Shown: piece by piece, positions 2,652-15,385 of the stretch
Layout: each line of letters starts with the position of its first letter
Numbering within the stretch: the stretch's first letter is position 1
Assembly: GCF_003334385.1 (NCBI RefSeq)
Contig: NZ_QOWN01000007.1
Direction: 5' to 3' (one strand)
Origin: Escherichia coli
GTDB taxonomy: Bacteria > Pseudomonadota > Gammaproteobacteria > Enterobacterales > Enterobacteriaceae
Length of the DNA: 64,000 nucleotides
The notes under the pieces: model-generated
The model's database searches: none
Told to the model about the DNA's origin: nothing
What the model saw: only the letters and a program-made list of their open reading frames with translations
Program-made: the position numbers and the translations under genes

Positions 2652-4778
2652 TTAGTTATGCAGCATCAGACGCGATATTTTTTCCAGAAGAGATGTCTGA
2701 CTGACTTCATTATAGCGTGTGGTATCGTAAGTTAAAGTTCGCAACAATAATTCAGTTGCTGGTTGCGCCATCACATCAACCTCTTTACCGTCAAATGTTG
2801 TCGCCACCAGATTATAAACTAAGGTTGCTCTGTCCATAATCTGGTTGGGCTGGTTACTTTTAGTACAAAAAAGTAATGCTTCATTACCTCGTTTTTCAAT
2901 AAAGAGTTGTTGATACTGGCTGACAGCATGACTTTTAGGTTTTGGCGTTAAATAGTAAGGCAAACATGTTTTATCCGCTGCACCAAATTTATTAATTTTA
3001 TCATGATTATCTTCTGCTACCTGAAGAGAACAACGCTCTGCAGAACCTAATAATCTCGGAATACGAACAGTATTGTATCGCTTAATCACAACCTGATTTA
3101 TTGTATCAACAAGATAGAAATTATCATCACGCAATTTATCAATACAGTTGATATTCATCCCTGGAACATTATTACGGAAATCGTTCTCATCGGTATACAT
3201 TTTCGGCTCTGCGATGTTCATTACGCCATGGCTGAATACTACCGGCGTAGCAACGCCATAAAAATCATTCCCTCTTCTGTTTCCGGAAGAGGAACACCGA
3301 ATTGAGACAAGAATATACTCACCATCGTTAATGCTAAAACCGGTAAGTTTCTTTCTCACCAGCACAGCTTCTTTTAGCCAGAGTTCGCTGCGAATCATTT
3401 CCAACTTAGCGACAGACACAGGATTAAGAACTTTTTTAACCACCAGGGTAACAGGATCTTTTTTATTCTGCTCTATGGCTTCAATATTACATCCCTGAAA
3501 AACTCGCTGATGATTTTTTTCAAAATCAAGGATAAAATCTACTTTTAGCCTTGAATAATAATCTAACAGACCTTTTTTACCCGCTTTTGCCTCATTCAGT
3601 GCCTGCCAGGTAGAGTTTAAAAAGGTATCTTCACCAAGGGAAATGCTGGACCCATTTATTTTTTTAGACTGATTCAGTACCAGATAGTTAACATCTTTAT
3701 CAAGATCAATAAGTTCCCGAGGTGAAATTATATCTACTGCATCTAATTCTTTTTTCAGATAGTGAATAAATCGTTGGTGCGCTTCTGGTTCTTCGCCATT
3801 ATCAAGATTGTCTATAATAACTAACGGGCGCTGAAGTGTTTTGATATTGGTCGTTAAAAAGTCTAACTGACTGTGGGTTGCACAAAAAACACGTGGTGAA
3901 AAAGCGATGTCAGCCTGAGACAGTATATCACCAAGCACGTTCTGAACCAGATTTTCTGCATGATTTTTGCACCCAGAATAAGCTTTACTGGCAAAACGCA
4001 TATAGGGCATTTTCCGGTATTTTCTACCATCTACTTTCTCAAGCAACTGCAATGATTTTTTGCCCTTAATCAGAATCCGACCATAATCGCTGAGTACACC
4101 AAGCTCTTCCGCTTTAGCTCTGAAGCAGATCCCTTTCAGGGTAAAAGTGAGGTCGCCATAATCCGGGCTGTAAAAGAGATCACTTTGCAATGCATCGACG
4201 TAATAGTTTCCTCTTTTGTCTGGCTCTTCTTTTTGTACGACGGCACCCAGAAAAATTTCGCTATTATAGGCCCCATGACTCACCTCAAAATACTTCCCGG
4301 CATTATCTAAAAAATGTAGTTTCAGACGCAGTCCGAGCACAGTTTGAGCAATTTTATATTGATCAAAGCCTTTTATTTTGAGTTCATTAACCCATTGATG
4401 ATACGGGCGAGCATCAGGTGACAGAAACATCACAAGATAGCTGTTTCCTTTTCTTAACGTTTGATACTGGAACTCCCTGTTATTCTTCGTTCCCAATTTT
4501 AACGATAATATATTTTGAATTTCTCTGTGCAATTCAATAAAAAAATCATCCCATTTCATGGAGTATTCTTTTACCTTGGTGATACAGATAGCATCAATTC
4601 CCCAACCATTTGTCGAGGGTAATTGTAAAAGTTTTTCCAACATTACATCTGCAGTATCATGGATATCAAAGAGCTGTGTTCGTGCTTTAGGTGCATAATC
4701 TGGAGGCTGAAGCCCCCATTCGGCAGCCATCACAACATCCGTTTCGTTATGCTGTTGACTTTCAGTTACATCAGTCAT
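2652..4778 (-). CDS. Hypothetical protein, 708 aa, second gene of the AT-rich two-gene operon; function unknown
   Basis: Long uninterrupted ORF; ATG overlaps the upstream gene's stop (ATGACTGA) with AGGAG 8 nt upstream; no motif I can assign by eye. Confidence 0.6.
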   Translation of the reverse strand: MTDVTESQQHNETDVVMAAEWGLQPPDYAPKARTQLFDIHDTADVMLEKLLQLPSTNGWGIDAICITKVKEYSMKWDDFFIELHREIQNILSLKLGTKNNREFQYQTLRKGNSYLVMFLSPDARPYHQWVNELKIKGFDQYKIAQTVLGLRLKLHFLDNAGKYFEVSHGAYNSEIFLGAVVQKEEPDKRGNYYVDALQSDLFYSPDYGDLTFTLKGICFRAKAEELGVLSDYGRILIKGKKSLQLLEKVDGRKYRKMPYMRFASKAYSGCKNHAENLVQNVLGDILSQADIAFSPRVFCATHSQLDFLTTNIKTLQRPLVIIDNLDNGEEPEAHQRFIHYLKKELDAVDIISPRELIDLDKDVNYLVLNQSKKINGSSISLGEDTFLNSTWQALNEAKAGKKGLLDYYSRLKVDFILDFEKNHQRVFQGCNIEAIEQNKKDPVTLVVKKVLNPVSVAKLEMIRSELWLKEAVLVRKKLTGFSINDGEYILVSIRCSSSGNRRGNDFYGVATPVVFSHGVMNIAEPKMYTDENDFRNNVPGMNINCIDKLRDDNFYLVDTINQVVIKRYNTVRIPRLLGSAERCSLQVAEDNHDKINKFGAADKTCLPYYLTPKPKSHAVSQYQQLFIEKRGNEALLFCTKSNQPNQIMDRATLVYNLVATTFDGKEVDVMAQPATELLLRTLTYDTTRYNEVSQTSLLEKISRLMLHN

Positions 4779-7700
4779 AATTCGCTCCTAAAAGATTAAG
4801 TAAGTATTGATTTACTCTTAATTCTGATTTTATTTTTGCATCATAAGGATTTTTGCCATTATCTTTTTCATAAGATGAAATATTTTTAAAAAGGTTATAA
4901 TAACAGACGCCCTTATGGTTAGAATGTTCGGCACGAATGTTGAGGCTGTTTAAAGCATATCGAGTATTAAGATAAACAACGTCAACACCATCAAACTGTG
5001 TTTTTGCTGTAATGATTTTCTGCAACTCACTGACTTTCCCCAATGAGTTATTATGCATTTTTTTCGCTAATTGTCGGTTATTTCCTTGCATTCGCCAGTT
5101 TTTTACATCGATTGCAACAATCCGGTTCTTGTTAATGCAATACACATCAAACAACTCATAACAAGAGCTATCCAGATAGTACGATAGCTCTTGTGGTGGG
5201 ATCAGCGTAATATTCATTTCCTGGAGAATCAGGTGTAATTGCCATTCACCAATATTGCCAATCAAAAGTGGCAACAATGAAGGAATGGGGATGTATTGTT
5301 GTAAAGGCGTGGCATCTAATCCCAGAATCTTCGCAAAAATACGCTGTTCAGTTCCGGATGACTCTTCAGCCATGGCTTCATGATATTGGGGTAAACAATA
5401 TTCCGGTTTGTATGGATTTGCTCCAGCTGAAATATCTGTTAATCCATAACCATCTAAGGTTTTAGCCAGTATTACATTTTCCCAATCGGCAGTACGCTCC
5501 AGATAAAAATGGCTTACACAGTCGCTAAGGTAAGCATTTTTCTTAATAATCGCGTTGCGTTTAAGACGTTTTATATATGACTGAGGATCGGTAAAACTGT
5601 CCCGGTGACGTAATGCTTCATTTAACTCAATTGCATCTCGATCACCTTGTCTTGCCAGTGGCAAAATTTTATTTTTCAGTTCAGCTTCAAAGTCGCTATA
5701 CATATCTATTGCTTTAGCAACTTTATTTTCAAATTCGCTACGTTGACTATCGGAAGAAAAGCTGGCTTTTAATAAATCCTCTTTTGAGCGTTTGAACCAT
5801 AGATGGTTATGCAGACTCAGGGAAGCAAGTAACGATTGTGCATTTGGATGACGATCCAAATCTCGAAAAACACACAATGCATTATGATGAACACCAGAAG
5901 GTAAACGAATAATCCCATTCATTTGGGCATCACGCCGTTCTGTACGGCCAATAGTTTGCATAGCAATTTTATGAAGCTCGACGGTATGTTCAGTATTCAG
6001 CAATTGGGCCGCATCAGAATCAACTAGATCCGTATCGAAATCACCAACCTGACGAGGTACACTTCCATGAGCATAATGCTTGAGTAAGGTAATATAATTT
6101 TCCAGCGTGTTTCGCGATGGAGTTGCATTAATCTGACTCCAGTAGCTACCGCAGACCATTGCTAATTCATCAAAGTCGATTTGTTCTAAATCTGCTTCTA
6201 CAGGTTCTGACGGTGCCGGATAAGTGACATAATAATTAAGCCCTGTCCCGGCCCCCTGGAAATGGGAAACCATGCATATTGCTAAATTTTGGTGATCGAT
6301 TTGCAGATAGTCTCTTACCGGATCTTCCCGGTTGAGTTTTGAATCAAACATGACGACACGCAATCTATGCCGCTCAGCAAAAGGGGTGATTTCAAATACT
6401 CGAGGTAAATCATTCCCCCGACGTGTTTCATTGTCAAGAATGGTAACCCCACGATAGGGATTTGCACTTAACTTATTGGCACGAAGAAAATTCCCGATAA
6501 TCGCAAAAAAACGGCTACTGATCCCGATACATAAAATGTGCCGACCAGTATAAGCAGCAAGTAACATACATTGTAACTGGCGATGAAACTCTCGTTTATG
6601 ATAGCGATTAAACTGAACTGCTTTAGAGTATGGTTCGAGCATTTTGAGCCAGAAACGATATGCATTCCTGAACTCAGACTCCTCGTTTTGTGGTAAAAAC
6701 TCTAGTACCTGATCGTCAAATACCTCCAACGCTACAGATCGATGAAGGTTTCTGTTGTCACGGATCGTCGACAAGGGCGAGGCAGAATCAACATCCCGCT
6801 GCCTGATGCGATAGTTCAACTCACGAGCGTATTTATCCAGAAACGGGCGGCTGTATTGCCCATTATACGTTGTAGGAAATCCTGCTGTAGCAGACAGCAA
6901 AATAATAGTATTACGCGTATTATAAAGCACACGTAATAATGCTATTTCAGGTAACTCCTTAATTAACTCCATCCGAAATTTGAGTAATACCCAACCCCTC
7001 AGTTGTTCAGCCTCAATTCTTACCTGTTCACGTGGCGAAAGGGAAAACAATGTCTTGGGTTGAAAATAGGTAAAAAAATCATCTATCAACTGTTCTTTCT
7101 GAGGCTCACTGGAAGATAAATGAACTATATCTCCTTTAATACTTTGGGCTTTACGAATGAAAACTGATAATGGGTTATTCTGATTTGCCATCTCCTGCTG
7201 TGCCAGCAAATCGCAGACATGTTTGGGTGTTTCCAACCGGGCAGAGGCTAATAATAGAGCAGTCAGTGTCTGATACAGTTCATATAAGTTAAATTCATCT
7301 GGAACTTTTTTGTCATCTTCAGAAACATAGACTTCAGTGTATGAATGACGCCCGTGACTACGTAAATGAATACGACGAAGGTCTGACTCACGGTAAAATC
7401 GCTGAATCTGATAACTGAAAATATTACCAATTAACGCGATAACCTGCTCAGCATTACGACTATCGACGACGATATCAAGCAAACTATTTCTAAAGAGTCT
7501 GGTCAGCTTCTTAAGATCGAAATCAGGTCGTAAATCACATTGTAATAAAGCTTTGTTGATCTCATCGACATAATTTTTCAGAGGGGTATACCCTGGTGCT
7601 CTTTCATCTGAAGAACATTCATCCACATATTCCAGTACACGATGTAAAATTGCCAGTAACGAAGGAAGTTGCTGATCGTCGTTCATTAATGTCTGGCAAA

Positions 7701-8775
7701 CATTCTGCTGGAAGATACGGTAGGCTTCGTGCTCTTCGTCCAGAACTAATGTGAAACGAATATCACGTTGTGCAAAAGGTGAGTCTTCGTCGGTTATCCA
7801 ATATTGCTCTTTTAAGCTCTCAATTCGCTGTGGATTAGTCTGGTTAGCAATCTCGCCTAACGGATTCACTTTGAGGCCTTTTTTCTGGCCCAGAACGTGG
7901 TCCAGTTGTTGTGAACTCCGGTGATAGTCGCCTTCTTTATCGCGTTTCAGTAACAGCACACTGCCATCGAACTTTTTCGTTGTAGCCAGCAGGATACATC
8001 GGCGATACAGTGCAATCTGAAATGGGAAAAGATGTTTAACCATTTCCGTAGCCAGTGCATATCGAGGATTAGTCGCTTCCCCATCAAGTAAAACCGCCAG
8101 ATCCTGATTCAAGGCATTAAGCATCGCCACAGTCGCTTCCTGTAAGCGACCTGCTAAATGAAAACTATTGAGACGTAACTCATCCTCCAGACGTTTTTGT
8201 TCAAACGTTGCCCCTACTTTAATCTCTGTTTCCAGACGTACTTCCAAACTATTACGCGCATCAACTTCAGCTTTCAGGCGTTGAAAAATAAGCTGAATTT
8301 CACCCGACATCAATTCGTTGGCTTGCTTGATCCAGCGACGATAACGTTCCCGGTTTGTGGGTGTTTTCCCTTCAGGAGATTTGACCCATGACGTAAAACC
8401 AAGATCTGCGATATCCCCTTGCGAAAGATAAGGTAACAATTCAATCTTCTTATCTCGGGCGCGAGCGATGAGTTGTTCCGGGATGTCAATTTGTGATTTC
8501 AAGGGTGTGATAAACACCAGATTGCGATGACTATTGCCAGGGTTGATTGCTGGATTTACGCTTTCGATGTATTGAGCGAAAACGTTATAGCTTTTACCGC
8601 TCGCCGTACCATCCTGGGATTGAATCAGTAGTGGTGTATCTGCTTCGGTAAAAGCGTAAAACGTACCGGCCTGTTTTCTTGCTGCGGTAATGGCTTCTCT
8701 GACACTTTGTGGTAATGGAAGATGTCGAATGTTGTGATTTAGTTCGGATTGCATGTCTTCAATTCCTTCTGGCAC
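4771..8775 (-). CDS. Large hypothetical protein, 1334 aa: P-loop GTASGKS (res 56-62), Walker B-like LVLDEE (res 343-348), C-terminal PD-(D/E)xK-like motif (D1210 ... D1223-V-K1225). Start is GTG at 8775 or ATG at 8754
   Basis: 4 kb ORF in a low-GC region; motifs verified by back-translation of nt 8590-8610, 7729-7749 and 5101-5148. Confidence 0.6.
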   Translation of the reverse strand: MPEGIEDMQSELNHNIRHLPLPQSVREAITAARKQAGTFYAFTEADTPLLIQSQDGTASGKSYNVFAQYIESVNPAINPGNSHRNLVFITPLKSQIDIPEQLIARARDKKIELLPYLSQGDIADLGFTSWVKSPEGKTPTNRERYRRWIKQANELMSGEIQLIFQRLKAEVDARNSLEVRLETEIKVGATFEQKRLEDELRLNSFHLAGRLQEATVAMLNALNQDLAVLLDGEATNPRYALATEMVKHLFPFQIALYRRCILLATTKKFDGSVLLLKRDKEGDYHRSSQQLDHVLGQKKGLKVNPLGEIANQTNPQRIESLKEQYWITDEDSPFAQRDIRFTLVLDEEHEAYRIFQQNVCQTLMNDDQQLPSLLAILHRVLEYVDECSSDERAPGYTPLKNYVDEINKALLQCDLRPDFDLKKLTRLFRNSLLDIVVDSRNAEQVIALIGNIFSYQIQRFYRESDLRRIHLRSHGRHSYTEVYVSEDDKKVPDEFNLYELYQTLTALLLASARLETPKHVCDLLAQQEMANQNNPLSVFIRKAQSIKGDIVHLSSSEPQKEQLIDDFFTYFQPKTLFSLSPREQVRIEAEQLRGWVLLKFRMELIKELPEIALLRVLYNTRNTIILLSATAGFPTTYNGQYSRPFLDKYARELNYRIRQRDVDSASPLSTIRDNRNLHRSVALEVFDDQVLEFLPQNEESEFRNAYRFWLKMLEPYSKAVQFNRYHKREFHRQLQCMLLAAYTGRHILCIGISSRFFAIIGNFLRANKLSANPYRGVTILDNETRRGNDLPRVFEITPFAERHRLRVVMFDSKLNREDPVRDYLQIDHQNLAICMVSHFQGAGTGLNYYVTYPAPSEPVEADLEQIDFDELAMVCGSYWSQINATPSRNTLENYITLLKHYAHGSVPRQVGDFDTDLVDSDAAQLLNTEHTVELHKIAMQTIGRTERRDAQMNGIIRLPSGVHHNALCVFRDLDRHPNAQSLLASLSLHNHLWFKRSKEDLLKASFSSDSQRSEFENKVAKAIDMYSDFEAELKNKILPLARQGDRDAIELNEALRHRDSFTDPQSYIKRLKRNAIIKKNAYLSDCVSHFYLERTADWENVILAKTLDGYGLTDISAGANPYKPEYCLPQYHEAMAEESSGTEQRIFAKILGLDATPLQQYIPIPSLLPLLIGNIGEWQLHLILQEMNITLIPPQELSYYLDSSCYELFDVYCINKNRIVAIDVKNWRMQGNNRQLAKKMHNNSLGKVSELQKIITAKTQFDGVDVVYLNTRYALNSLNIRAEHSNHKGVCYYNLFKNISSYEKDNGKNPYDAKIKSELRVNQYLLNLLGANYD

Positions 8776-9219
8776 AACTGCATTTTGAAAATCGGGTATG
8801 GACGTATTAACGCACCAAACACAGCGTTAAAGGGCTATGTGAAATACTCGCTGAGACGGCTTGTATTCGAAAGGTGGTACGGGCACTTATTATGCTACGC
8901 CCAATCGCAACCGTTATGGTAGTTAAGTGCGTATTTTACCTGACATTATGCAAACGTCAGAAACTTAATCCCATATTTTTATATGGTTAAAAATTCATGT
9001 CTGCTGCTGATTGATTTGCTTCGAATTGGTTCATATCTCACCGCTAAGCTACGTCTGGATATGCGGGCAAATATGGTATAGATGATATGCTGGTTCATTG
9101 TACTTGGCTTGCATGACGGAAGGAAAAGTCAGTAGTAAAAAGGTGGTCATTCTGGAGGTCTTGACAAACAGGGAATTCAGGTTTAGCTTACTTATTAGCC
9201 AGTTACTGGCAAAGGCGAT

Positions 9220-9236
9220 CCCAGTCAGAGGAGCCA
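9220..9236 (+). repeat. Direct copy of the tRNA-Asn 3' end (cCCAGTCAGAGGAGCCA) without the rest of the tRNA; att-like island boundary scar
   Basis: 16-17 nt identical to the 3' acceptor/T-arm end of E. coli tRNA-Asn as I recall it; no full tRNA nearby. Confidence 0.5.
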
Positions 9237-14848: not shown

Positions 14849-15385
14849 ATGAAAACAAAGATTGCTATCGCAAGCGATGATGTAGGTTTTGCACGTAAAG
14901 AGGAGATCAAAAAATACCTCATAGAAGAGAAAAACATGGAGATCGTGTACGATCCCGTCACATGTAAGGAACAAGGTGTCAATAACTTCGCGCGTCTGGC
15001 CGACGAAATGGCAGGCATTATTCAACGCGATGAGTGCCGTCTGGGAATTTACATTTGTGGGACTGGCATTGGCTTTACTTGTCAGATCAACAAACACTGG
15101 GGCATAAGAGCCGTTGCGGTTACTAACCCCTACTCCGCAAAGCGGGCGCGACTCAGCAATAACGCACAAGTTATTGGACTGGGTTGCCGGGTCAACGATC
15201 TCGAATACAGCAAAATGATTGTCGATGCATGGTTGGATAACCCATTCGACTTCACCACCGCCAGAGAAAATTCTAAAAAGAACTTGCTAGAAGCTGAACG
15301 TAACGATAATGCATTGCTGGTTAAGCCCGCTGATGTACGCTGGAATATGGGTTTCCGACCAGATGATGAAAAATCTGAGGGTTAA
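14849..15385 (+). CDS. RpiB/LacAB-family sugar-phosphate isomerase
   Basis: 178-aa translation resembles the ribose-5-P isomerase B / galactose-6-P isomerase family. Confidence 0.6.
   Translation: MKTKIAIASDDVGFARKEEIKKYLIEEKNMEIVYDPVTCKEQGVNNFARLADEMAGIIQRDECRLGIYICGTGIGFTCQINKHWGIRAVAVTNPYSAKRARLSNNAQVIGLGCRVNDLEYSKMIVDAWLDNPFDFTTARENSKKNLLEAERNDNALLVKPADVRWNMGFRPDDEKSEG

Follow-up and report, generated by a model that had tools for sequence, protein, structure and literature searches.

Does the large two-gene operon in a tRNA-Asn island of the Escherichia coli contig NZ_QOWN01000007.1 represent a new defense system, and if not, what does it encode? An initial annotation of the window (the whole stretch of 64,000 nucleotides analyzed here) had put it forward as a candidate novel defense system resembling those of the abortive-infection and restriction types. 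The ORF listing of the window gave two co-oriented minus-strand genes, found as annotated at 4771..8775 and 2652..4778, which we call here apsA and apsB, in that order.

4771..8754, minus strand: apsA, 1327 aa from the ATG; RefSeq WP_001190348.1; predicted SF2 (XPD/DinG-like) helicase fused to a C-terminal PD-(D/E)xK nuclease
2652..4778, minus strand: apsB, 708 aa; RefSeq WP_000133029.1; Argonaute-like protein
4771..4778, minus strand: apsA/apsB overlap of 8 nt, ATGACTGA, with AGGAG at 4785-4789
8933..8960, minus strand: sigma-70-like promoter candidate, CTGACG-16-TAAAAT, upstream of apsA (consensus scan only)

The 8-nt overlap given in the initial annotation is confirmed, and in a Citrobacter homolog the two genes overlap by the identical length; the spacer between AGGAG (4789-4785) and the apsB ATG is 6 nt, not the 8 nt given at first. 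The apsA ORF extends to a GTG (4771..8775, 1334 aa), which had been taken as the start, but the start used both in RefSeq and in the published sequence is the ATG at 8754, with AAGGAA before it, which gives a protein of 1327 aa (MQSELN...). With the start moved to this ATG, residues K61, D1223, and K1225 become K54, D1216, and K1218, as in the published numbering. The ca. 6.1 kb of the operon are AT rich, as had been described (40.4% GC versus 49.7% for positions 15000 to 64000), and the low GC runs on to ca. 15 kb, through the adjoining sugar-PTS genes. The promoter candidate provides weak evidence, because shuffled sequence yielded more such sites than the region did. In RefSeq, both genes are labeled “hypothetical protein.”

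Neither protein was recognized by PADLOC-DB 2.0.0, Pfam-A, NCBIfam 20.0, or PHROGs v4. PADLOC gave 0 matches for the operon (PADLOC-DB 2.0.0 may not hold DdmDE models), a zinc-ribbon match to a TnpB-related model was below threshold (E value of 0.021, 15 bits versus a cutoff of 32), and a PHROG match had an E value of 0.24. Pfam returned nothing for ApsB, for the two halves of ApsA, or for 20 distant ApsB relatives, with thresholds of E ≤ 10 for the window ApsB and the first distant relative and of E ≤ 0.1 across the 20 distant relatives. The RefSeq accessions of the two genes had no match in a literature search. A word-indexed homolog search yielded 6 to 7 clusters per protein, to which a profile repeat added none, and an exhaustive profile search uncovered a family of ca. 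150 representatives. Among the checks that the initial annotation had proposed, PADLOC and Pfam came back empty, and the fold search pointed to DdmD and DdmE.

ApsAB is an E. coli anti-plasmid system named by Zongo et al. (Nat Commun 2024; PMC11096173), whose Supplementary Data 9 gives sequences designated “ApsA CNR81D10” and “ApsB CNR81D10.” Over the 384 aa compared for each protein, the window sequences had 0 mismatches (100% identity), and from this part we extrapolate that the rest (943 aa in ApsA and 324 aa in ApsB) is identical to the tested clone as well. The gene order is the same in the window and in CNR81D10, and within the compared part of the supplementary sequences there was no detectable difference between them. 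Oceanospirillum maris homologs of both window proteins also figure in the ApsA and ApsB homolog tables of that paper (PMC11096173). CNR81D10 is an E. coli ST10 variant, one of three ApsAB systems that were cloned, and its induction in MG1655 lowered the copy number of the ColE1 plasmid pBbE8c (Fig. 8c of PMC11096173). Besides the sequence match, the operon shows the arrangement of the family, in which an apsA of more than 1100 aa comes before a co-oriented apsB of more than 500 aa, and it has the motifs scored for the family patterns GxGKS, DExH, SAT, and QxxGRxER (helicase), D...D-V-K (nuclease), and Y-x3-K ... QG ... K with a C-terminal Asn (MID-like); a further hallmark, plasmid destabilization, has been published for the CNR81D10 variant (PMC11096173). 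Judged by its sequence, the window operon is an ApsAB system, and it is not new, because the system has been published under that name and the CNR81D10 variant has already been tested. Homology to an already named system was what the initial annotation had said would overturn its claim of novelty, and such homology is what we found.

The ST38 prototype of the system is a distant relative, with only 28/25% identity to CNR81D10 (PMC11096173). Its ApsA has ca. 1550 aa versus 1327 aa here, the window protein being without a ca. 165-aa N-terminal extension, and its island lies at tRNA-Leu, while that of the window is at tRNA-Asn. Activity of the ST38 orthologue depends on both of its genes, and the mutants ApsA K221A, ApsA E533A, and ApsB K413A were all inactive, whereas the ApsA nuclease mutant K1435A had a partial effect only (PMC11096173).

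Residue invariance in ApsA was scored over 10 homologs, down to 20% identity, and the motif residues of both proteins fell into the same alignment columns as those of the ST38-like references (the L009 gene for ApsA and P0045 for ApsB). The following elements were located in apsA.

8590..8610, minus strand: Walker A/helicase motif I, GTASGKS (K54); T50, G53, and K54 invariant; K54 aligns with ST38 K221
7729..7740, minus strand: helicase motif II, DEEH (E340); D339 and E340 invariant; E340 aligns with ST38 E533 (DELH)
6886..6894, minus strand: helicase motif III, SAT; S621, A622, and T623 invariant, aligning with ST38 SAT 823-825
6232..6255, minus strand: motif V-like, GAGTGLNY; T837 and G838 invariant; motif V label from position only
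5935..5958, minus strand: helicase motif VI, QTIGRTER; Q933, G936, R937, E939, and R940 invariant, aligning with ST38 QAVGRVER
5101..5247, minus strand: PD-(D/E)xK active-site region, E1170 ... E1200-x2-D1203 ... D1216-V-K1218; all five invariant

In the nuclease region, D1203 ... D1216-V-K1218 align with ST38 D1420 ... D1433-V-K1435, and the spacing pattern is that of the DdmD pocket (E1059, E1082, D1085, D1100, and K1102). The substitutions suggested in the initial annotation (K61A and D1223A/K1225A) would hit the correct catalytic residues, K54, D1216, and K1218, all of them invariant. When an AF2 model of ApsA (10 sequences in the underlying alignment; 127 residues left out, 113 of them in one internal segment) was searched against PDB folds, the top 15 matches were all DdmD, followed by DinG, with global TM-scores versus DdmD of only ca. 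0.33. The invariant motifs and the fold search support the prediction that ApsA is an NTPase (SF2 helicase) with a PD-(D/E)xK nuclease tail, in agreement with the initial reading of this protein.

ApsB is Argonaute-like, which the initial annotation had not recognized. Its conservation was counted over 63 homologs.

3372..3557, minus strand: MID-type 5'-end binding motif, Y408-x3-K412 ... Q428-G429 ... E465-x3-K469; K412 and K469 invariant
2655..2681, minus strand: C-terminal tail; K700 in 63/63 homologs, terminal N708 in 49/63

The remaining motif residues (Y408, Q428, G429, and E465) are each kept by 95% or more of the 63 homologs, and the motif corresponds to the published Y409, K413, Q431, and K489. 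The C-terminal Asn of ApsB has been proposed to reach the guide pocket (PMC11096173); the equivalent tail of DdmE uses K674 and E678. In the original description, ApsB was without PIWI and PAZ and structurally unlike DdmE (PMC11096173). However, the overall Argonaute fold was present in our fold searches, and the nearest solved structure was DdmE, which suggests that the ApsB-DdmE relationship was underestimated there. It would be a larger step, and one that we consider rather improbable, to take ApsB for a complete Argonaute of the DdmE lineage and ApsAB and DdmDE for one ancient two-component family in both subunits. The DdmE lineage is “long-C” in the terms of the DdmDE authors.

ApsB does not fit the canonical catalytic long pAgos, having no Pfam Piwi match and no conserved DEDX tetrad. 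Across the 63 homologs, there was no acidic tetrad common to the family (D485 in 31 and E531 in 21 of them), and DdmE is likewise without a family-wide conserved DEDX tetrad. The D485/E531/D558/N656 pattern in the PIWI-like region is kept by the subfamily of the window protein alone. Should these four residues map onto the catalytic positions, ApsB might be a target-nicking enzyme in its own right, and this could explain the partial defect of the ApsA nuclease mutant, but that mutant is the ST38 protein, and ST38-like P0045 has T/D/D/N at these columns.

Among solved structures, ApsA was matched best by DdmD and ApsB by DdmE. The DdmDE systems of Vibrio cholerae and Lactobacillus casei also consist of two genes, a DinG/XPD-like SF2 helicase-PD-(D/E)xK fusion followed by an Argonaute-fold partner of ca. 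700 aa, have the same spacing of nuclease and guide-pocket residues, and, like ApsAB, eliminate small multicopy plasmids. However, there was no detectable sequence similarity, since HMMER profiles of 6 and 10 ApsA homologs and of 7 and 63 ApsB homologs retrieved no DdmD or DdmE chains from the PDB sequences at E ≤ 10, only noise. As regards membership in DdmDE, sequence models gave no match, whereas the fold matched for both subunits. Furthermore, ApsB retains the classical Y-x3-K...Q...K MID motif, unlike DdmE, and ApsA is larger than DdmD, with extra insertions. Guides (5'-phosphorylated DNA, with D-loop targeting), dimer autoinhibition with dimer-to-monomer activation, and 5'-3' polarity have been demonstrated for DdmDE only.

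The best explanation as a whole, which we regard as very probably correct, is that this is an apsAB operon of the published anti-plasmid family, in its CNR81D10 variant, probably acting by a DdmDE-like mechanism. By analogy, the MID pocket of ApsB (Y408, K412, Q428, E465, K469, and K700) would bind a short 5'-phosphorylated guide, probably single-stranded DNA, and guide-loaded ApsB would pair with plasmid DNA, forming a D-loop, and load ApsA onto the displaced strand. ApsA, as a DinG/XPD-like helicase, would then translocate with ATP, unwinding the DNA, and its C-terminal PD-(D/E)xK nuclease would nick or degrade it, leading to plasmid loss. The guide chemistry, the D-loop, the helicase polarity, and the oligomeric state of ApsA are all borrowed from DdmDE in this scheme, and we infer guide type and strand polarity by the same comparison. 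Given that the effect of K1435A was only partial, the nuclease action of ApsA may not be the whole mechanism. A similar logic operates in type I CRISPR Cascade-Cas3, where a helicase-nuclease is brought to the displaced strand by the recognition module that bears the guide, an analogy already made for DdmDE; here, however, CRISPR array, Cas proteins, and HD nuclease are absent, and the guides are not genetically encoded.

Instead of DNA guides, ApsB could use RNA guides or detect the RNA-DNA hybrids (R-loops) that form where foreign DNA is transcribed. RNA guides are what long-B pAgos use. According to the ApsAB authors, the Y-K-Q-K MID motif is common to ApsB and long-B pAgos (PMC11096173). 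R-loop sensing was proposed for the pPIWI-RE/DinG/REase systems (Burroughs et al. 2013; PMC3702460), in whose operons an Argonaute-type module likewise stands together with a DinG-like helicase and a nuclease of the REase fold and which, like ApsAB, have a patchy, horizontally transferred distribution; in addition, DinG is the closest non-DdmD fold match of ApsA. Membership in pPIWI-RE was considered because of the Y-K-Q-K motif and the helicase-plus-REase partner and was rejected because of the Pfam results and the gene organization. There was no pPIWI_RE Pfam domain in the window ApsB or in its 20 distant relatives, no Fe-S cysteine cluster was noted, and pPIWI-RE systems have three genes (REase-DinG-PIWI) versus two in the window (fused helicase-nuclease and then Argonaute-like). 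Moreover, DdmE, the closest structural relative of ApsB, binds 5'-phosphorylated DNA guides, not RNA guides. On balance, RNA guides or R-loop sensing appear unlikely, and we favor the DNA guides of the DdmDE-like mechanism.

The operon sits at the far end of the tRNA-Asn island. The flanks described in the initial annotation, an rhs toxin/immunity module and an att scar, were both present. On one flank of the operon, the former consists of an Rhs C-terminus and a gene for an NTF2-fold immunity protein; on the other flank lies the latter.

9221..9236, plus strand: 16-nt repeat of the tRNA-Asn 3' end (att scar), distal island boundary; 0 matches expected by chance

The other copy of the repeat in ATCC 8739, at a distance of 16.8 kb, forms the 3' end of the intact tRNA-Asn gene. 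Laboratory and reference strains such as this one carry the operon.

Since end-resection enzymes such as AddAB or RecB also combine a helicase with a PD-(D/E)xK nuclease, the operon might be thought to serve housekeeping or repair, as a helicase-nuclease that has an accessory subunit and plays no part in conflict. However, the gene pair was found in only 37 of 5,426 complete E. coli genomes, in a low-GC tRNA island, and is interrupted by IS elements in several strains, while plasmid elimination has been shown experimentally. The sparse distribution and the published phenotype effectively refute a housekeeping function, to which we assign a vanishingly small probability.

The proposal of a two-gene conflict system, co-transcribed and located in an island, was right. 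The two genes stay together in other genomes: apsA-apsB pairing was kept in 7/7 homolog contexts examined, all of mobile or defense type. Among these are an island that also holds an OLD-family nuclease, AbiE, and a TerB system, a Tn7-like cargo, the edge of a prophage, and a locus that has a BrxR regulator upstream. The defense island, the BrxR regulator, and the prophage edge would also fit the idea, suggested at first, of an abortive-infection or restriction type of system directed primarily at phages, in which the helicase-nuclease degrades phage or host DNA on infection, and many nucleic-acid-targeting systems hit phages and plasmids alike. However, the activity demonstrated for the identical variant is plasmid loss, and MG1655 expressing ST38 ApsAB was not protected from any of eight phages (lambda, T4, P1, 186, CLB_P2, LF82_P8, T5, and T7) (PMC11096173), even if the system used in these tests is only 28/25% identical to the CNR81D10 variant. 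A primarily anti-phage role is thus quite unlikely, and the operon is best regarded as an anti-plasmid system.

The discovery value of the operon is small, as it was named, surveyed, and tested in 2024. Genome scans will nevertheless keep calling it new, because the libraries miss it and RefSeq labels its genes as hypothetical proteins. In strains such as ATCC 8739, its presence could alter how stably ColE1 or p15A cloning vectors are maintained. Regarding the family, if the relationship between ApsB and DdmE was indeed underestimated, the structural work on DdmDE would transfer directly to ApsAB.

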